A DNA stretch of 64,000 nucleotides, from contig JBDRCZ010000017.1 in NCBI GenBank assembly GCA_043821285.1, positions 15,947 to 79,946 on the forward strand. Reading direction: 5' to 3'. Origin of the DNA: Candidatus Omnitrophota bacterium. GTDB lineage: Bacteria; Omnitrophota; Gorgyraeia; B26-G9; JBDRCZ01. Below the pieces are notes generated by a model. That model was given only the letters and a program-made list of their open reading frames with translations. It ran no database searches and was not told where the DNA came from. Made by a program: the position numbers and the translations under genes. Numbering within the stretch: the stretch's first letter is position 1; each line of letters begins with the position of its first letter. Shown piece after piece: positions 5,080-59,560 of this stretch.

Positions 5080-5112
5080 AACATCAAAAATAATAAAAAA
5101 GAAAAAGATAAT

Positions 5113-5201
5113 GCCACAGATTTTCACTGATTGAACACGGATAAAAAACAAAAGACAAATATTAAATAAAAATCCGTGTTTCATTCGTGTGAATCCGTGG
5201 C
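5113..5201. repeat. CAC[ATG]GAT word array, imperfect 30-nt palindrome arms
   Basis: GCCACAGATTTTCACTGATTGAACACGGAT (5113-5142) versus ATCCGTGTTTCATTCGTGTGAATCCGTGGC (5172-5201). 22 of 30 positions are complementary by hand count; words are phased 10-11 nt. Confidence 0.7.
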
Positions 5202-5796: not shown

Positions 5797-7322
5797 TATT
5801 AATTCTTGATTTTGGCTCTCAATATACCCAGTTAATTGCCAGACGCGTGCGGGAACTGGATGTTTATTCAGAGGTCTTACCGGCAAATGCCGCATTTAAT
5901 CTTATAAAAAAACATAATCCTTGCGGGATAATCCTCTCTGGCGGACCGGCTAGTGTTTATAAAGATTGTGCGCCAGAGTGCCATAAGGAGATCCTGCACT
6001 TAGGAATTCCGATTTTAGGCATCTGTTATGGCATGCAGTTAATCGTAAAATTTTTTGGCGGGCAAGTAATATCAGGACATAAACGGGAATATGGGCCAGC
6101 CAAACTCAAAATTATAGATAAAACGGATTTGTTTTATAAAATTGATACAACAATAAGCTGCTGGATGAGTCATGGTGACCGGGTCAATACTTTACCGGAT
6201 GATTTTAAGGCGCTTGCTTACACGGATAATTCTCGATATGCAGCAATTGCTAATAAAAGGCTTAATATTTACGGCGTACAGTTTCATCCGGAGGTTGTCC
6301 ATACCCCCTGTGGAAAAAAAATTATTCATAATTTTTTATATAAAATCTGCAGCTGTCAAGGTGCATGGTCAGTAACATCTTTTATTAAGGAAAAAATAAA
6401 AGAAATTAAATCAACCGTAAAAAACTCAAAAGTTATCCTGGGATTAAGCGGCGGAGTCGATTCCGCGGTTGCGGCAGTATTAATCCATCAGGCGATTGGC
6501 CGACAGTTAACCTGCATCTTTGTCGATAATGGACTGTTAAGACTTGGCGAGCTGAAAAAGGTTAAGGAAACATTTACCAGAAATTTTAATATAAATTTGC
6601 ATTGTCTGGATGCCCGCAGGCAGTTTTTGAAGAAACTTGCCGGGATTACTGATCCGGAACAAAAACGGAAAATAATTGGTAAGCTGTTTATCCGCGTATT
6701 TGAACAGGAAGCAAGAAAAACCGGCAACATCGAATACCTTGCCCAGGGCACGTTATATCCGGATGTCATCGAGAGCCGTTCCGTGTTTGGCGGACCGACC
6801 GCTAAAATAAAATCCCATCATAATGTCGGCGGGCTTCCGGAAAAGATGCATTTAAAATTGCTGGAACCGTTTAAATTTTTGTTTAAAGACGAAGTACGGC
6901 AAGTCGGTAAAAAAATGGGACTGGCTGCGGAAATTATCTCCCGTCAGCCGTTCCCCGGTCCGGGGCTAGCCGTTAGAATTATTGGTGCGGTAACTGAAAA
7001 TAGACTCGATATTTTGCGAAAGGCAGACCGGTGTGTGCTCGAAGAGATAAAAGCCAGTGGCCTTTATCAGCAGATATGGCAGGCATTTGCCGTGCTCTTA
7101 CCAATAAAAACAGTCGGGGTAATGGGCGATGAACGTACATATGAGAATGTTATTGCATTAAGGGCCGTTACCAGTTTAGATGGGATGACCGCAGACTGGG
7201 CAAGATTACCGTATAATGTCCTGGAAAAGATTTCCAATCGTATTATCAATGAAGTTAAAGGTGTTAACCGGGTAGTATACGACATTAGCACAAAACCACC
7301 GGCAACGATTGAGTGGGAATAA
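5778..7322 (+). CDS. guaA: GMP synthase (glutamine-hydrolysing)
   Basis: GATase block [18 protein letters not shown]...CYGMQ, ATP-PPase SGGVDS, conserved C-terminus ...PPATIEWE. Overlaps the HIT gene by 19 nt. Confidence 0.95.
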
Positions 7323-7478: not shown

Positions 7479-7522
7479 CGCAATACTCAATACTCAATAC
7501 TCAATACTTAATACGCGATACG
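7479..7522. repeat. heptad tandem array CGCAATA-(CTCAATA)x3-CTTAATA-CGCGATA
   Basis: Six consecutive 7-mers read directly from the sequence. The array ends 6 nt before the dnaE ATG. Confidence 0.8.
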
Positions 7523-16263: not shown

Positions 16264-16421
16264 TACACAGATGATCAGGAATAATGCGTGAAAACACTAT
16301 TTTTAATAGCCTTTTCAGACGACAACTGTGTAAAAGTTTTTAGCAAAAGTGTAGAATTTATCGAAACTTGATTTTTTGCATGCTCTTAAATGCAAAGGCT
16401 GATGAAACAGGGAAAGATAAA

Positions 16422-16498
16422 GCCACGGATTAACACTGATTGCACTCGGATAAAAAAAGACGAGGCCTAAATATTAAATTCACGTATTATTCAGGATA
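16422..16498. repeat. CAC[GT]GAT word array plus shared 30-nt block
   Basis: GCCACGGATTAACACTGATTGCACTCGGAT (16422-16451). The block AAATTCACGTATTATTCAGGATAATCT recurs at 1534-1562 with 2 mismatches. Confidence 0.65.
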
Positions 16499-26700: not shown

Positions 26701-26970
26701 TCATGGACAATGGGTCAGGTCGGGTTCTAGTTTTAACGCTAATTCCTCGATCTTAGGAAGAATTGCATTCAAATATCCTGCTATTTCTGAGTGTTCAGCC
26801 CGGGTTATCATGATCAAGAGATTTTCCCGTGGGATAGGATTAATATTTTTAGTGTCATACGGGGGGATCAGCGGCTGAACATGGTCTATACTAAAAAAAA
26901 CACCCTGCGCCTGGGCTACCAGAGGTATAAAAACAAATACAAACAGTAATACAAGGGATATCTTTTTCAT
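26701..26970 (-). CDS. small secreted hypothetical protein
   Basis: Signal-like MKKISLVLLFVFVFIPLVAQA; RBS AGGAGGGG upstream. Confidence 0.35.
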   Translation of the reverse strand: MKKISLVLLFVFVFIPLVAQAQGVFFSIDHVQPLIPPYDTKNINPIPRENLLIMITRAEHSEIAGYLNAILPKIEELALKLEPDLTHCP

Positions 26971-27147
26971 TTTCCCCTCCTATTATTTTTTGGGGTTCTG
27001 TCAAAACTTACCTAAACTTTTAATAAGCAATGCAGATTACAAACGACTAATTATATTATATACTTATTTTCAATGGAAAGTCAAGAAAATAATGCCCTAC
27101 GTGACTTAGGAATATCAAATGTTTAATGACAAATCTCAAATGAATTT

Positions 27148-27954
27148 TTAAATAACTTCAAAGCTAAGCCCCCAGCATAGCTGGGGGCTTAGCTTTGAAG
27201 TTATTTTTTTCTTTTCCTTATCAGATATGCTATTTTCTTCAGTTATAAGTTTCAAAATTAACTGAGAGGGCTTAACGGATTGTTTTAATTTTCTTAGATC
27301 CGGCAAGTCACGTACCTTTTTATTTGTATCTACATATTTATTTTTTATTTTCATGGCAAACGCTTCATCTCCCAGAATACAGCCTTTTAACGTCAGTTTT
27401 TGCAAAGGGAATTTTTCTTTTAACATTCCTGCTGCAACAAACTGCCGATATGATTTTTTGCTCTCAAAAGAAGCCATTATGGTTTTTGTTTCCATGTAGT
27501 TAGGCAATATTTTTGAACCAACATAGTAATGATAACTGCACCAGGGATATTCATAAGGTGTATTAGATAATCCGGCAGCGACGGCGTTAAGATGTATGTA
27601 GCGTGACAGTTCATTAAGGTATGCATCTTTATCAACAACAATTGCTTTATATCTGCCTTGAAAGAGGTGTCCTACCCTCTTTTGTGCTTTATTATAATAT
27701 GTGGTGTAGCTTGAATTTATATACTGCATGCACCGGCTTAAATTAGCATATGGAGTTTCCATAAGCAAGTGATAATGATTAGGCATTAAACAATAGGCAT
27801 GAATTATAAAGCTAAAACGCAGGTATGCATTTTTAATATAAAATAAAAACTTATCTTTATCATAATCAGTAGTAAATATTTCATTTTTATCATTTCCTCT
27901 GGCACTGATATGATAAAAGGCTCCTGGATATTCAATTCTTAATGGTCTAGCCAT
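27148..27954 (-). CDS. IS200/RAYT-like Y1 (HUH) transposase family protein
   Basis: YHISARGN, HUH motif PNHYHLLMETP, and GHLFQGRYKAIVVD with the catalytic Tyr context. The last ~18 codons are encoded by the hairpin at 27151-27205. Confidence 0.75.
   Translation of the reverse strand: MARPLRIEYPGAFYHISARGNDKNEIFTTDYDKDKFLFYIKNAYLRFSFIIHAYCLMPNHYHLLMETPYANLSRCMQYINSSYTTYYNKAQKRVGHLFQGRYKAIVVDKDAYLNELSRYIHLNAVAAGLSNTPYEYPWCSYHYYVGSKILPNYMETKTIMASFESKKSYRQFVAAGMLKEKFPLQKLTLKGCILGDEAFAMKIKNKYVDTNKKVRDLPDLRKLKQSVKPSQLILKLITEENSISDKEKKKITSKLSPQLCWGLSFEVI
27151..27205. repeat. 26-bp perfect hairpin (3-nt loop)
   Basis: AATAACTTCAAAGCTAAGCCCCCAGC-ATA-GCTGGGGGCTTAGCTTTGAAGTTATT, followed by a T-run on the plus strand. 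Confidence 0.85.
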
Positions 27955-28035
27955 AACCTCTCTTTCTGATGATAATAACCTTCGTATATATTATAGGCGT
28001 TATAGTCAATTTTGGCAAATGGCGAGGTCTGACCC

Positions 28036-28449
28036 CTACTTATTTTTATTTACTACTGATACCAGCTTTTTATTATCATGGGAGTCAATAATTATCATAC
28101 AGGTGTTAGAGTTTGTACATTTACAGGTTGTACCGTATATGTAATTAATATTAATTCCCGCGGCCTTTATTTTTCCGGCCATTTGTGCGGCTTGTCCGGG
28201 TTTATCTTCCAACTGTATTAAGACTACCTCCTGTTCGCTGATCGCATAATCTTTGGCTTTTAATGCGGACGCTGCTTTTCTGTTATCAGAAGTAATTAAG
28301 TAAAAATGTGCTTTATCTTGCATTGCGTAGGCACAGATTGCGGATATATTTGCACCAGCTGCGGATATTGCCAGACTTACCTCTTGCAGTATGCCAACCT
28401 TATTTTCCGTAATTACCGTTAGTTGTTTTATAATTTCTGCCTTAGCCAT
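28036..28449 (-). CDS. ACT-domain protein
   Basis: Two ACT-like halves (LTVITENKVGILQEVSLAISAAGANI; VVLIQLEDKPGQAAQMAGKIKAAGINI). Confidence 0.65.
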   Translation of the reverse strand: MAKAEIIKQLTVITENKVGILQEVSLAISAAGANISAICAYAMQDKAHFYLITSDNRKAASALKAKDYAISEQEVVLIQLEDKPGQAAQMAGKIKAAGININYIYGTTCKCTNSNTCMIIIDSHDNKKLVSVVNKNK

Positions 28450-32820: not shown

Positions 32821-33140
32821 ATTACATATATGCTTTCATTCTCGTATTGAGTATCGCGTATTAATGTTTTAAATTCGAAATCCGAATATCTAAATGTTTA
32901 GAATTTGCCATTCGTCATTATAAGTGTTTTATTTTATCTATCTAGTTGATCCTGTCTAATTCGTTCTCGTATTGCGTTTTTTTATTGTCGTCTACTTGTT
33001 TTTATACTCAATACTCGATACACAATACACAATGCGTTGTTTAATCATTTCTCTCCGTGTTCTCTGCGGCTCTGTGTGATAAATTTTAGCTTTTATTTTC
33101 TGTCTTCTGAATTCTGATTTCTGTTTTCTGCTGTTAACTG

Positions 33141-39581: not shown

Positions 39582-40054
39582 AAGTTAATAGCCTATCAGT
39601 TAATTCCAAATGTTCCGCCTATCAAACCGGCGGACAGGCAAATAATAAAATCCAAATGACAAATGAATCATTTAATATCTCAATCTAAAAATCAAAATGA
39701 TATATTAAAATTCAAATATTTTTCTCTTTGACAGGATTTACAGGATTAACATGATTTTTTATCCAGTTAATCCTGTCTATTTTCTTATTTTCTCTGTGAA
39801 CTTTGTGTTCTCTGTGGTTATAAATTTTTTTATTTTTTTTAATCGTAATACTCAATACATGCTACTCAATACGCATTACTTTTTATAGTGTGCTCTCTGT
39901 GGTTAAAATATTTTTTGTTTTTTTATCTACATAATCATCCGTATTCTACGCTCTCTTTTATATGCACTATTTTCATTACAATCATACATATTGTAACCGC
40001 TAATAATTACAATCTGTTAAATATATTTATAACAATTTTAATATATACAAGTAA

Positions 40055-40082: not shown

Positions 40083-40421
40083 GGATTTTGCTAAAAAAAT
40101 ATAGAAAATAACAGATTAAAAGATTCAGGTGATCACGGTTTTAAAACAGTATCAAGGCATTATTTATAACTTATTTATTTATAATATATTATAAAATAAT
40201 TATCGAATATGCCTACATGTTAATTATTCGTGAAATTCGTGTAATTTGTTGTTTAAAAATAAGCAGTTAAAGTTTTTCTTTGTGTGATAAATTTTATTTT
40301 TTACCGCAGAGAAAATCTAAAAGAAATCTCGTTCACAGATGTATGTAAGTTACATCCACTTTCTATTCTTAGTGCGTTACGTAAACGGTAAACTGCCTGC
40401 CTCCCGTTAGGGAGGTAAACT

Positions 40422-40446
40422 AAAAAATTGCCATAGGCAATTTTTT
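40422..40446 (-). terminator. terminator hairpin after G3
   Basis: Minus strand reads AAAAAATTGCC-TAT-GGCAATTTTTT then AGTTTACC. Overlaps the stop codon by 2 nt. Confidence 0.55.
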
Positions 40447-43400
40447 AAATTGCCCGTTCAATTTCAAACAAATCTGCTATCTCTCTCTTCTCCAGTTTTG
40501 TATCTGATCCATTTATGCCTACCCTATAGCCAGTGTGTCTTTCTTGGGGAGCAACTATTAGAGAATAAAGAGCGTGTAGTAACAGCATATCAGAATCAGA
40601 AATATGAGGGTCTATATTTTTTGCTTCTAATATTGATTCATCATCGCTTATTATTTCTTGTATAATTGTTTTTACTATATCTCTATCTTCAGCTCTGCAT
40701 TTTTCATGAATTGCATTCAGACATTGTTCAAAAAATGGTCTGAGCATCATAAGCTGAACATTATCTTCTTGTGTATATGCATTGGCAACTGCTTTTGTAA
40801 CTGTTTCTAAAACAGTTTGCCGGTAATCTGGTCTTACCGTATAGATATTATCAAAAAAGATAAAAGTCCCGGCTGCGGCTTGTGGCATTATTGTCTTGTT
40901 TAGTATCTCATTAATAACATTTCGAGGAAAATATACTAAAATACTTAATAATTTATCTATTGTAGTATTACTTGGGGTTAAACCTTGCTGCTGGATCAAC
41001 TCTTGATATTTTCTTCCTATGATTCTATGCATAGATTCAAGACTTCTTCTATTTGCATTTATCATTAAATTATTTCCTTTAACTGCTGTAACTAAGTCCG
41101 TTAATTCGCTTCGTATCATTTCTCGTTCTTTCTCAAATACATCCGTATCTTCGTTCCTCTGAGATATAAATAACCCTAAAAATTCAAGTTCTAATGCTTT
41201 TTTAAAGGCATCTTCCGAAGTAAATGCGTTTAATCTAACAGTAATATTTTCTAACAACATTAGCTCAAAGCTGGTACCTTGACGAAAAATATGTTTTAGA
41301 AATTTTTCTGCATTAGTAAATTCGGGTGAAAAGATGATTTCTCCACTGACACCATCTACTGTTTTCTCCATCACTTCATTTATCAAATTACCTACTGAAT
41401 CTAAGTTGTGAAACTCGTTTAATCTATTTTCATCTTGTATAACAGCTCTTAAATAAACCTCCATTCTTAAAAGGTAATCAGCCAAAAAAACACCATCAAT
41501 TGCAAAACGTATATTTTCATTCGTATCTTGAGTTCTTGCAGTCAAGGCTTGATAAAGAAAATCATCTATATCGGTCAACATTCTATAAAAGATTTCCATT
41601 GCTGTTTCCTTATCCTGTTTTAGAGCAAGTTCGAGGACATTATTAACATTTGAAAAATCTCGTGAAATATACTCCTTAATTACATCACATAACGCATTGA
41701 ACAGTGGTTTTTTATCACGACGGTAAATAGCAAAACTTAGCCTAATAAATGCTGCTAATATCTCATGGGAATTAAATCCTGAATTTATTAAATAACTTTG
41801 CTCCTTTTCTATATAGATTGGTATAATTTTAGAAACGTCATATCCCGCAATAACTGTGTAAGCAACTGCAGCAAAAATAAGATTATGTGTTTCTGCATCA
41901 TGTTTAGGAATGTTTATTCGTTGTAAGATTTCTCCTAATACTTCTCCTGCCTCAGTAGTTCTCTCCTCTTTTCCTTCAATCTGCGCTTTTATTTTATTAG
42001 TAAAAAATTCAAAAACAAAATCAGGTTCTGCCTTAAGATACGCTTCTATTGTTTCCCAATCTGCTGCTAATAAATTACGCAGTTTTTGGATTTTATCTTG
42101 AACCACGATTAAGTTATTTCGTAGATTGCTTATTTTTTTCTGATTTTTTCTCGTTTGTTTTTGCTCTTTGTTTATGGTTTGCTGAATAGTTCTTTCATTG
42201 CTTTGGCGACGATTAAGTGCCTGCGTCCTTGTAATAACTCCTTCTAAGAGGATTGTTACTTCAGAGAGTTTTTCTCTACGCGCTTTTACTGCCGGGGGCA
42301 TATCTAAAAGTAGAGGTTCCCTTGTTGTCACTGGAGCCTGCCATGCTGGAAGTTCTTCAGATGCTACTTGCATAGCAGCAGCGCCTTGAAGGACCTGAGG
42401 ATATAATGAATGTTTTTGCATTGGGTCTTCAACTAACATAAGCTCACAACTTTGAGGCGGTTTGAGAGCATTAATTCTATTTTGGATAACTACTCCCAAT
42501 CCCCAAGCCCATTCTGCTTGACTTTTATATAAATCAACTAAGGCTTCAATATCCTCACTTTCGTTTATAATTGCGGTTATTCTCTCTACCAGAGGAGCCC
42601 GGCTGTTTCTGTTAGGATAGGTATTAAGCATTTGATATAATTCAGGTATATTACTTAAATCATTATAACCGAGTAATCTTTTTCTCAGTACCTCTGCTAT
42701 TACCCCCCTTATTTGCTTACATCCGTAGGTATATTTATTTATAGAATTATCTGTAAGTAAACGAAGCAGGTTTTCGATATCTAAGGAAAACACTTGCCTG
42801 ATAATACCGAAAATAATATATATTTCTACTTCAGAGTGAATTTTTTTACTAAGTAAATTAGCTAATGCAGCAAGTGCCTCGCCCCCCCATTTACTAACCA
42901 TCTCCTGAGCAATAGCTTGAGCTTGTGTTTTGTCATTATTTTCTGCTTGCTGACGTTTAAATCTATCGGAAATTGCGGTTAATCGTTCAATGCCATCTTC
43001 AATCGAAGAAACAGTTAGGTGTATTTCTGATATTTTTCCTTGAGAAGCAATACTATTACTTAATTGTGCGGCTGCTGCTTGCTTTGTTTTCTGGGGTAAC
43101 CTTGGATTTCGTGACCACTCTGAAAGCAAGCGATCATTTACTTCTGCTAATCTTTTTGCAGTGCTTAACGCCTTAATTCTATACCAAAGATAATTATTCC
43201 AGTATTCATCGTCCCATTCTTGGCTTAGATACACATCAACTAAGGCAACAATATCTTGATTATTTTTTATTATATGTTTCATCCTTCTTCTTGCCAGATC
43301 TTTAATGTCTTCGTTCGGACATAATGTTTCATTATTAATAACATAATATAATGCAGAAATACTTGTTACGTTTCGAGGAATGCTAACAGTTTTTATGATA

Positions 43401-47536: not shown

Positions 47537-47854
47537 ATGTTAATACCCTGTTAGTTAATTCCAAATGTTCTAATTCAAGATTTAAAAATTCCAAGATTCC
47601 AGATTCTAAAATTATAAAATTCCCCGCTACAAGGTCGAAGATCCGCCATCGTATTAGTGAAGAACGCTGGCGAACAGGCAAATTCTCTAACCTTCGGCAA
47701 GTAAAACGTTTTGAATCGTTAAATCTTAAAATATTCAAATTTTGGAATTGTTTGTTTTATTCTTCTGTCTTCTATTCTCTACCTTCTGTTTTCTGCTTTC
47801 AATCAGCTGTATCAGTAAACGGTAAACTGCCTGCCTTCCATTAGGGAGGTAAAC

Positions 47855-53553: not shown

Positions 53554-53751
53554 GATTTGTAGATATGTTTATCCATTCCAGATTTTAAAATTCCCCGCCA
53601 TAATGCGTTGACAGGCAGATTCAAAATTTAAATATTTTCTTTGAAACAAGTGTCACATGATTAATCTGATTTTTTATCCTTCTTTATCCTATTAATCCTG
53701 TCTATTTTTTCTGCTTTTTTGTCTTCCAAATTCTGACTTCTGTTTTCTATC

Positions 53752-55232
53752 ACAGTACTTTGTTAAAAATCAGGTCTTTTCAAAAAAATCATTTACGTAA
53801 GTCGTGAAAACTCATAACTTATGTAATTTCAATACTTTACGTTAATTTTTTCCTTGACAATATCCACAACTCCTGCTATGGTATATAGTTGTAATCAAAC
53901 CACCGTAACACACAACAGGAGGTGGATATGGGTATTTTTAATCTCACTATTTCGGTAATCAATAATTTCTTATTTCGTTTTAAACCTGCCTTCTCAAAAA
54001 AACAATTTATCGTTTTCTCCTTCCTGATCTATGCTTTGTTTAAAGACTACAAGAGAAATTCCCTTTATGCCCTCGCCTCTAAAACTCCAATCAACTATCA
54101 GGCTTGTCAGTACTTCTTATCTGAAGGAAAATGGAGTATCGATGATCTTAATAATATAAGGTTAAAAATTATTGAACATCAAAGAACTACTTCTGCTACT
54201 TCCTCCGGCGTCTTAGTTATTGATGATACTTCTCCTAAGCCTTTTGCTAAAGCTACCGCCGGTGCTAAACGTCAACACTGTGGTGTCTTAAATCGTGAAG
54301 AAATCTGTAATGTTGCTGTATTCTCTGCCTTCGCCTCCAAAACTAAACGCTTCCCGATAAACCTTAAATCTTATCTCCCCGCTGAAAAATTCTTATTTGG
54401 CAAAGAGGATGTAGATTTTAAAAGTAAGCTCGATCTTGCCCAAATATTAGTCGATGATGCCTTAGAAAGAAAAATTAAATTCTCTTCCCTCGTCATAGAT
54501 GCATGGTATGCTCAGTCTTCACAATTCCTTGAGTTTGTTCACTGCCAGAGAAAACTGCCCTTCATTGGTGAATTAAAGTCCAATCGTAACATCTTCTTTT
54601 ACCATCCGCTAAAGCGGAAACACTGCTGGATCCAGCAGGATGAGCTGGTGAAACTCATCAAAAAACATTATCCGCATAAGTGTAGGTTTTTTACCTCCAC
54701 GAGCAAAGATGGTAAGAAGAAGTCTTGGGTCTTCTACACCTTCAAGGGACTGCTGAAAGATTGTTCTGTTCCCTTAAGCATAGTGGTGATCTTTGGTAAG
54801 TGGGATAATCAGGATGATAAGAATGTTCATATCCTTATCTCCAATCAGACCCGCCTGGCTACTAAGACCATCATTTCCACCTACCTGCTTCGTTGGGGAA
54901 TAGAGCTTATCTTCAGGGAGCTCAAGGATGTCTTCTCCTTTGACCAATACCAGGTTAGACATACCAAACAGATCGAACGTTACTAGACACTATGCCTTAT
55001 TGCATGGAGCCTGTTATATTGGGTCAAACAAAATGCCTATCTTACCAAAATCCTTGAGCATAAACCTGCTACCTTCTATGACTACAAACAGGCCATTGAC
55101 TCCTTACTCCTTTATGATGCTCATCAGTCTCTTTCAAAGAACAGTCATCTTGCTCAGAAATATTTTAAAATTAAATCGGATAATTTTAAACAGCAAATCG
55201 CTCGCGTTGCCTGATTTTTAACAAAGTCCTGT
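53752..55232 (+). mobile_element. IS4/IS701-like insertion sequence (1481 bp)
   Basis: 23-bp terminal inverted repeats ACAGTACTTTGTTAAAAATCAGG (53752-53774) and reverse-complement ACAGGACTTTGTTAAAAATCAGG (55210-55232), 1 mismatch. Direct 6-bp flanks TCTATC (53746-53751 and 55233-55238). Confidence 0.8.
53922..55214 (+). pseudogene. DDE transposase (IS4/IS701-like) interrupted by an in-frame TAG
   Basis: VLVIDDTS, LVIDAWY, YLLRWGIELIFRELK blocks. TAG at 54984-54986, after which the same frame continues 75 codons (TLCLIAWSLLYWVKQN...QQIARVA) to TGA 55212-55214. Confidence 0.65.
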
Positions 55233-59036: not shown

Positions 59037-59560
59037 AATAAATATCTCCAGTTATTTAATTTTAAATGTCCCGCCTATCAAACCGGCGACAGGCAAATGA
59101 ATCATTAAATAATTCAATCTTTAAAATTTATTTATGTAATTTGTGTGATTTGTTGTTAATAAAATAAGTACTTGAAATCTTTCTTTGTGTGCTCCGTGTC
59201 TCTGTGTGACAAATCTAATATTTTTGTTTCGCTTGTCCGCCGTGCTCTGTTTGGCGGGTCATTCTGGTTTCGTTATTCGTTATTAAATTATCCTGTCTAT
59301 CATCCACAATGATTGGCGGATCTTCAATTTTTTATATTTTCTCTGTGAACTTTGCGAGCTCTGTGGTGATAAATTTTTTATTTTTTTTTACCGCGATACT
59401 CAATACTCATTGCTTTTTATAGTGTGCGCTCTGTGATGATAATTTTTGTTTTGTTTTTTTAGCCACAATGCTCAATACACAATACCCGATACTTAATCAT
59501 ATTACTTTTCATAATGCCTTGTTATAAATAAATTTATAACATCTTTTAAATAGTTTTATA

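Follow-up and report, generated by a model that had tools for sequence, protein, structure and literature searches.

The 64-kb window, by which we mean the whole stretch of DNA analysed here, contains an open reading frame on the minus strand at 27148-27954 that encodes a Y1/HUH protein of 268 aa. An earlier note on this DNA had described a Y1 transposase gene here; the frame is present as described, and the match of its product to Pfam Y1_Tnp ('Transposase IS200 like') exceeds the family cutoff (E = 2e-14). The description of the gene as single-copy also holds within the 64-kb window, where tblastn detected no further copy. The gene lies between an ACT-domain gene (28036-28449, minus strand) on its 5' side and a gene at 26701-26970 on its 3' side, and its last codons run through a perfect hairpin. 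Genes of the type to which we assign it, and the units that they form, have been named TIRYT and TIRtron, respectively, and the units are bounded by terminal inverted repeats (TIRs) with the common motif GGGGWSAS, that is GGGG[AT][CG]A[CG] (Di Nocera, De Gregorio & Rocco 2013, PMC3733652). The features of the locus are as follows.

28013-28036, minus strand: left TIR of the TIRtron, GGGGTCAGACCTCGCCATTTGCCA, with GTA before it at 28037-28039; it contains GGGGWSAS, and the same sequence occurs at five full-length homologues, inverted at their 3' ends.
27990-28018, minus strand: predicted promoter-like site of the Y1 gene, TTGCCA-17-TATAAT, with 11 of 12 consensus positions and the -35 box inside the left TIR.
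27148-27954, minus strand: very probable 3'-truncated TIRYT gene (class 2, subclass 2.1 TnpA_REP-like Y1/HUH nuclease), 268 codons plus stop, assigned by Pfam, NCBIfam and homologues.
27538-27939, minus strand: Y1/HUH catalytic core, residues 6-139 (H60-Y-H62, Tyr119, Asn123, Pro124Ala), delimited by NCBIfam and Pfam spans, conservation counts, the AF2 model and the 4er8 fold.
27199-27309, minus strand: retained N-terminal part of a DnaA-domain-IV-like region, residues ~216-252, placed by the family profile against DnaA domain IV, the end of the tblastn match and the alignment.
27151-27198, minus strand: non-homologous C-terminal tail S253-I268 (SKLSPQLCWGLSFEVI), wholly hairpin-coded, with no counterpart in 119 homologues.
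27150-27206, no strand assigned: perfect hairpin with 27-bp arms, a 3-nt loop and a GC-rich 14-bp core between complementary A/T-rich flanks; terminator-like on both strands and unique in the window.

Among the Y1 enzymes, the window protein is closer to RAYTs than to IS200 transposases, and it belongs to the TIRYT family, subclass 2.1. Its top NCBIfam match is REP_Tyr_transpos, although at 75.7 bits this is below the cutoff of 80, and the NCBIfam IS200 models gave no match. Proteins of this kind form the subclass 2.1 TnpA_REP class, which has the class-2 signature Y---NP (Quentin et al. 2018, PMC6006769). In the window protein the signature reads Y119-I-H-L-N123-A124, with the Tyr and the Asn kept. 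The HUH residues H60-Y61-H62 and Tyr119 occupy columns that are invariant across all 119 homologues compared. Position 124, in contrast, is Pro in 119/119 homologues and Ala in the window protein, and Pro124Ala is unique among the 120 sequences. The catalytic contexts had been described as intact, which is correct for the HUH motif and Tyr119 but not for the Pro of Y---NP. Across the first 250 residues, conserved columns deviate at 3 of 73 positions in the window protein compared to a family mean of 2.1, and this count over 119 homologues revealed no general decay of the N-terminal 250 residues. The AF2 model has a mean pLDDT of 85.6 and exceeds 90 over the catalytic core (residues 6-139). Judged from the alignment and the model, the catalytic core of the window copy looks intact apart from Pro124Ala.

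In a fold comparison with solved structures, the AF2 model was closest to E. coli TnpA_REP with a REP hairpin (4er8; E = 3e-7, TM 0.74), whereas the ISDra2, IS608 and IS200 transposase structures gave E values of ~1e-4 to 1e-3, ~1000-fold worse than the RAYT structure. Neither phmmer nor the family profile gave a direct sequence match to the solved RAYT and IS200 structures, so that the link is by fold comparison only. The preference for RAYT over IS200 implied in the earlier note is borne out by the best NCBIfam match, by the best fold and by a motif that is Y---N and not Y---Q. A search of the protein collection with the window protein returned 7884 matches. The nearest other protein, the full-length P0002 (313 aa), is 60% identical over 252 residues (E = 7e-95), and identity to full-length members with a C-terminal Bac_DnaA_C-like helix-turn-helix (HTH) is 46-60%. 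The median length of the 119 homologues is 314 aa, compared to 268 aa for the window protein. On these comparisons of sequence, the window gene can be called a truncated TIRYT with high confidence.

A TIRYT is a RAYT-like class-2 Y1/HUH single-strand DNA nuclease with a C-terminal DnaA-domain-IV-like HTH, and a TIRtron is a compact unit of ~1.05 kb in which a single TIRYT gene lies between ~24-bp inverted repeats. To our knowledge, the mechanism of action of TIRYTs has never been tested experimentally and the elements are still uncharacterised. Full-length members are ~313 aa long and end in the DnaA-domain-IV-like HTH. The family profile matches DnaA domain IV (2hcb, 1l8q) at E = 2.3e-5 over a span that includes the break point of the window gene and continues beyond it; individual relatives give only sub-threshold Bac_DnaA_C matches. 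Proteins with a Bac_DnaA_C-like C-terminus constitute subgroup 2.1.2, and for subclass 2.1 genes REP-like structures nearby are not reported and the gene copy number per genome is low (PMC6006769). The earlier note had associated the gene with REP elements; its family (TIRYT, subclass 2.1) is associated with TIRs instead (PMC3733652, PMC6006769).

Pairs of ~24-bp terminal inverted repeats (GGGGTCAGACCT..ACATTTGACA) were confirmed at five independent full-length loci (L001, L005, L006, L007 and L013), each with a different genomic context. At these five loci the left repeat, GGGGTCAGACCT..ACATT(T)GACA, is positioned upstream of the ATG with a spacing of 27 to 64 nt and has a TTGACA -35 box inside it, and the inverse repeat overlaps the stop codon. 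The left and right repeats co-vary within an element, as in L005 with GGTCAAACC and GGTTTGACC. The right repeat encodes the C-terminus of the protein, which reads ..SNV(stop), ..NVEV(stop) or, in another frame, ..SRSDP, and endings of these kinds are found in at least 51 of 119 relatives. These details of the repeats (~24 bp, the -35 box in the left copy, the coding right copy and the co-variation) are modest additions to the published descriptions. They apply to the Omnitrophota-, Planctomycetota- and Nitrospirota-rich branch of the TIRYT family and provide the DnaA-IV-like HTH with a concrete candidate site in double-stranded DNA; the broken copy in the window contributes nothing on the TIRYT mechanism.

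The L001 element gives a view of a full-length TIRtron in its setting. It occupies 5931-6950 within a glycerol-3-phosphate-dehydrogenase-like operon (DAO / Pyr_redox_2 / [TIRYT] / DUF1667), exactly between two neighbouring genes of this glpA-like operon, 25 nt past one gene and 10 nt ahead of the next and without a terminator. The three genes of a glpA-like operon are normally contiguous, and the position of the TIRtron between adjoining genes thus indicates a past insertion. The same arrangement was seen in L002-L004, which makes four assemblies from different samples.

In the window, the left repeat carries the GGGGWSAS motif as GGGGTCAG and precedes the ATG with the usual spacing, and the 13-nt motif of this repeat occurs nowhere else in the window when up to two mismatches are allowed. 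The TTGACA in the TIR of the homologue loci is at the same place as TTGCCA in the window. The ACT-domain gene ends in a TAG (28038-28036) that overlaps the first base of the left repeat, and the junction between this stop and the repeat reads GTAG/GGGG at 28036-28039. Given this overlap, insertion of the TIRtron may have reshaped the last codons of the ACT gene. An empty or intact orthologous site was searched for via homologues of the ACT gene and none was found; the nearest homologue of the ACT-domain gene anywhere is only 33% identical, which suggests that the lineage is too poorly sampled. The inner half of the TIR was also considered as a DnaA box and rejected as evidence, CATTTGACA agreeing with TTWTNCACA at 6 of 9 positions (by eye).

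The 3' side of the gene departs from the family abruptly. In alignments the window protein tracks its relatives as far as ..DKEKKK(IT) and then diverges, at the point where relatives continue as VYxLRKYTGxTLxEI....SxSAVSxxxxR...; across the 119 homologues, VYxLRKYTG...SAVS...R stands where the window protein has its hairpin-coded tail. The base of the hairpin, at residue ~250-252, is where homology to the family ceases, and tblastn of full-length relatives against the window ends at 27199-27202, which corresponds to residue 252 and lies a few bases into the upstream hairpin arm. Given the 60% identity, the break point can be placed to ~3 codons at best. The final block of the tail, residues 261-268, has a pLDDT of 44 in the AF2 model. 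The frame had been suspected of being extended into a structural element, and this is supported, the 16-19 codons that the hairpin contributes being non-homologous to the family.

The gene is not just extended, however. The family alignment stops before the HTH and the family profile matches DnaA domain IV past the break, so that the window gene has lost the HTH. Some 62 codons encoding this DnaA-IV-like domain are missing, and with them the right terminal repeat. Pfam detected no HTH (Bac_DnaA_C, HTH_23 or HTH_28-like) in the window protein, the three frames downstream of the hairpin contain no C-terminal remnant, and tblastn of the window with 11 C-termini gave only noise at E values up to 100. 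No right TIR was found anywhere in the 64-kb window with up to two mismatches, which makes the locus a remnant by descent and not a complete TIRtron. Compared to the TIRYT/TIRtron (PMC3733652; equivalent to TnpA_REP subclass 2.1.2, PMC6006769), the window copy is alike in its Y1/HUH core, the Tyr and Asn of its Y---N(P) motif, its left repeat with GGGGWSAS and its single occurrence in the window, and differs in that it has no right repeat and no HTH, has Ala in place of Pro and ends in an unrelated hairpin. As two defining TIRYT features, the repeat pair and the HTH, are missing, the most fitting label for the locus is truncated TIRtron remnant. Shortened members are rare, with one other among 119. 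This is P0080 (261 aa, JGI), a family member in which the break falls at the same domain boundary, directly ahead of the HTH, and is followed by an unrelated tail rich in Pro and Ser. Such elements may decay repeatedly by losing the DnaA-IV-like domain.

The hairpin that takes the place of the lost end consists of two 27-nt arms, 27150-27176 and 27180-27206, that are 100% complementary. The earlier note had reported a perfect 26-bp hairpin encoding the final ~18 codons within a palindrome at 27151-27205; the hairpin is real and perfect and the frame does run through it, but the arms are 27 bp long, the palindrome spans 27150-27206 and 19 codons (K250 to I268) lie inside, with the TAA stop (27150-27148) straddling the last base. 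Folded as RNA, the hairpin has an energy of -50.4 kcal/mol (z = -10.5), and none of 200 shuffles was as stable. A scan with consensus patterns found the hairpin to be terminator-like on both strands. On the gene strand, AAAAATTC directly follows the stem; the U-rich stretch belongs to the stem and is followed by A5, and a gene-strand U-tract becomes available only on opening of the outer 13 bp of the stem (GCUUUGAAGUUAUUU). The opposite strand has a clean T-run, which simply complements Lys-rich coding sequence. Across the junction the G+C content shows no break (29-40%), and the next gene, downstream of the hairpin, has its own promoter-like TTGACT-18-TATAAT at 27084-27055.

Other gene ends in the window have smaller perfect palindromes of the form A-tract/stem/T-tract with 3-4-nt loops, which overlap stop codons. 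An example is 40414-40454 (AAAAAATTGCC-ATA-GGCAATTTTTT), which also has paralogous copies. The folding energies of the other gene-end hairpins in the window are about -1 to -23 kcal/mol, compared to -48 to -50 kcal/mol here. The hairpin is like bidirectional Rho-independent terminators in combining a GC-rich stem with complementary A-/T-rich tracts into one long perfect palindrome and in lying at the end of one gene and before another that has its own promoter-like site. It is unlike them in the unusual length of its stem (27 bp, -50 kcal/mol), in its overlap with 19 codons and in its weak U-tract on the gene strand.

We found no second copy of the hairpin arm in the 64-kb window with up to three mismatches, and none in shuffles of the window. 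The hairpin-specific sequence was not found in JGI metagenome contigs (20-nt arm; 28-nt core) or in viral contigs, and 26971-27260 had no match among plasmids in distant-mode blastn. Rfam gave no family at the gathering score and only far-sub-threshold generic hairpins (miRNA precursors, sRNA terminators). The 10-bp core, AGCCCCCAGC/GCTGGGGGCT, with a 3-nt loop was recovered by a scan allowing any loop in 37 stretches (L014-L050) of representative genomes from unrelated taxa, none of them Omnitrophota, in a collection without the source genome. These stretches occur essentially once per genome, differ in their outer arms and in many cases lie between A-runs and T-runs. A core present once per genome in unrelated taxa with such flanks suggests a generic, convergent terminator-type stem. 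We also considered the core as a degenerate TIR and rejected it; GCTGGGGGCTTAGC and GTAGGGGTCAGACC agree at 8 of 14 positions (by eye), and the core does not conform to GGGGWSAS. At the 3' ends of the five full-length TIRtrons no comparable hairpin was found, the best having -13 to -22 kcal/mol compared to -48 kcal/mol here. The hairpin is foreign to the architecture of the TIRYT family and does not count among its candidate substrates.

Collectively, these results favour the reading that the locus is a decayed, immobilised TIRtron remnant fused by deletion to a terminator-like hairpin, a statement to which, taken whole, we assign a probability of about 0.6. For the hairpin taken by itself, an origin as a terminator joined by deletion is mildly favoured. 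In the sequence of events that we envisage, a TIRtron would have inserted just after the ACT-domain gene, as suggested by the left repeat abutting the stop codon of that gene. A later deletion would have taken away the right repeat together with the end that encodes the HTH, and would have joined the gene, within ~3 codons, to the base of a hairpin of the Rho-independent terminator type that was already there. This hairpin may originally have terminated the upstream transcription unit of the ACT gene, in which the TIRtron would have inserted itself. This predicted terminator would now end transcription of the truncated gene ahead of the separately promoted next gene. With one end and the DNA-binding domain gone, the element would no longer be mobilisable. 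The truncated protein is probably inactive or heading for loss; Pro124Ala in Y---NP fits with this and hints at relaxed constraint. That changes at conserved columns are not in excess (3/73 compared to 2.1) suggests either that the truncation is recent or that the shortened protein is still under selection. Two observations count against a simple terminator, namely that the gene-strand U-tract lies in the stem and that the hairpin is far stronger than the other gene-end hairpins of the window. The locus is nothing new in kind and represents the ordinary decay of an element. Annotation should name the gene a truncated TIRYT (RAYT-like) remnant, and neither an IS200 transposase nor a REP-mobilising enzyme, and the final 16 residues of the protein should be treated as read-through into the hairpin.

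Among the alternatives, the one that survives best, though we regard it as rather unlikely, is that the hairpin was itself born of the rearrangement, when a fold-back or template switch at the deletion junction duplicated sequence in inverted orientation; it may still terminate transcription in that case. The 100% identity of the arms over 27 bp suggests a recent origin, and homology to the family may reach 8 nt into the upstream arm (K250-I251-T252 compared to K-L-S in relatives); the outer base pairs would then have been copied from the gene itself. Past ~3 codons, however, the arm (..SKLSPQ) is unlike the family in any frame, which leaves at most a few bases that could have been templated from the gene. 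The presence of other perfect palindromic terminators in the window also speaks against such an origin.

A connection of the hairpin with the enzyme is improbable. It would make the hairpin a REP-like or other mobile palindrome that is recognised and spread by the window Y1 enzyme or by another in the genome. In favour of it, REP hairpins are the substrates that RAYT-class Y1 enzymes bind and cleave, 4er8 gave the best fold match, and the hairpin is unusually long and perfect. The RAYT/REPtron system is represented by E. coli TnpA_REP (YafM, PDB 4er8; Nunvar 2010; Bertels & Rainey 2011). The window protein resembles it in its best structural match, 4er8, and in the Tyr and Asn of its class-2 catalytic signature. 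It differs in that the NCBIfam REP_Tyr_transpos score is below the cutoff (75.7 compared to 80) and in that its TIRYT relatives have a large extra C-terminal region. The window locus, moreover, is without flanking REP pairs, GTAG-tagged palindromes or a dispersed repeat family in the window. REPtrons have flanking pairs, whereas here a single hairpin lies on one side of the gene and a TIR, which is not a stable hairpin, on the other, so that no inverted REP pair is formed. Direct reading of the hairpin against PMC3733652 revealed no GTAG or CGTC tag and no GGGGWSAS. The RAYT/REPtron class has a low gene copy number per genome (PMC6006769), and the same source reports no REP-like structures near subclass 2.1 genes.

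The distribution of the hairpin likewise argues against its being mobile. No other copy of the arm is present in the 64 kb with up to three mismatches, none was recovered in the metagenome or viral scans, and the representative genomes hold unrelated single-copy hairpins that share the core only. The five full-length relatives have no such hairpin. The suggestion in the earlier note that the hairpin might be a RAYT substrate thus finds no counterpart in those relatives and no further copy in the window, metagenome or viral sequences. Two outcomes had been named there as speaking against its view. One, uniqueness of the arm, agrees with the window and the collections scanned, in which no second copy was found; the other, clustering of the protein with IS200 TnpA, is not what was observed.

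It is also quite unlikely that the junction is an artefact of the metagenome-assembled genome (MAG), with two loci mis-joined at the palindrome. In favour of such an artefact, the DNA comes from a Candidatus Omnitrophota MAG, the exact protein occurs in no more than one known contig and no independent assembly of the locus was found. In contrast to a typical palindrome artefact, the sequence outside the 27-bp arms is not inverted-duplicated. The continuous G+C content (29-40%) and the sensible gene-end and promoter-like signals on both flanks also speak against a mis-join.

We consider it very improbable that the truncated Y1 protein, without its HTH, remains active and now takes the adjacent perfect hairpin as its substrate in place of the lost double-stranded terminal repeat. 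If true, the locus would be a snapshot of a TIR-associated enzyme turning hairpin (REP)-associated, and the 57-nt palindrome would be the first member from which a new repeat family arises in this Omnitrophota genome.

In IS200, a perfect palindrome acts as a transcription terminator. The IS200 hairpin is upstream of tnpA, in the left end, and is conserved across copies, whereas the window hairpin is at the 3' end, is conserved in no relative and replaces part of the gene; the proteins share the HUH/Y1 fold, but the window protein is of class 2 and IS200 TnpA of class 1. We reject the reading of the gene as an ordinary IS200/IS605 transposase within a complete insertion sequence, for which the Pfam Y1_Tnp match ('Transposase IS200 like') would speak, as the motif is Y---N and not the class-1 Y---Q, the protein has 268 aa (313 aa in relatives) compared to ~130-150 aa for IS200, no IS200 NCBIfam model matches, the IS200, IS608 and ISDra2 structures fit ~1000-fold worse than RAYT, the ends are inverted repeats and not subterminal hairpins, and there is no tnpB gene and one copy in the window.

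The earlier note had mentioned hairpin-forming arrays elsewhere in the window. These are probably the long AT-rich intergenic regions with short-period motifs (7481-7521, 33000-33137, 39704-39935, 47746-47802, 53619-53756 and 59329-59499, and also 1398-1435, 5104-5141 and 16413-16450). Their motifs, which recur upstream of giant genes, include CAATACT heptamers, TTCTG-type repeats and GGATTAACACTGATTAAACAC. They have no resemblance to the hairpin at 27150-27206, as had been stated. The giant genes are six very large paralogous open reading frames in a row at 29833-63891 on the minus strand (995, 2146, 2363, 1891, 1241 and 1310 aa). Pfam found no domain in the two largest, transketolase domains in the 1891-aa protein and a SAM methyltransferase in the 1241-aa protein. 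Five of the six have a common 5' block of ~175 nt (repeat family D1), and four have a common 3' hairpin that overlaps the stop codon (repeat family D4).
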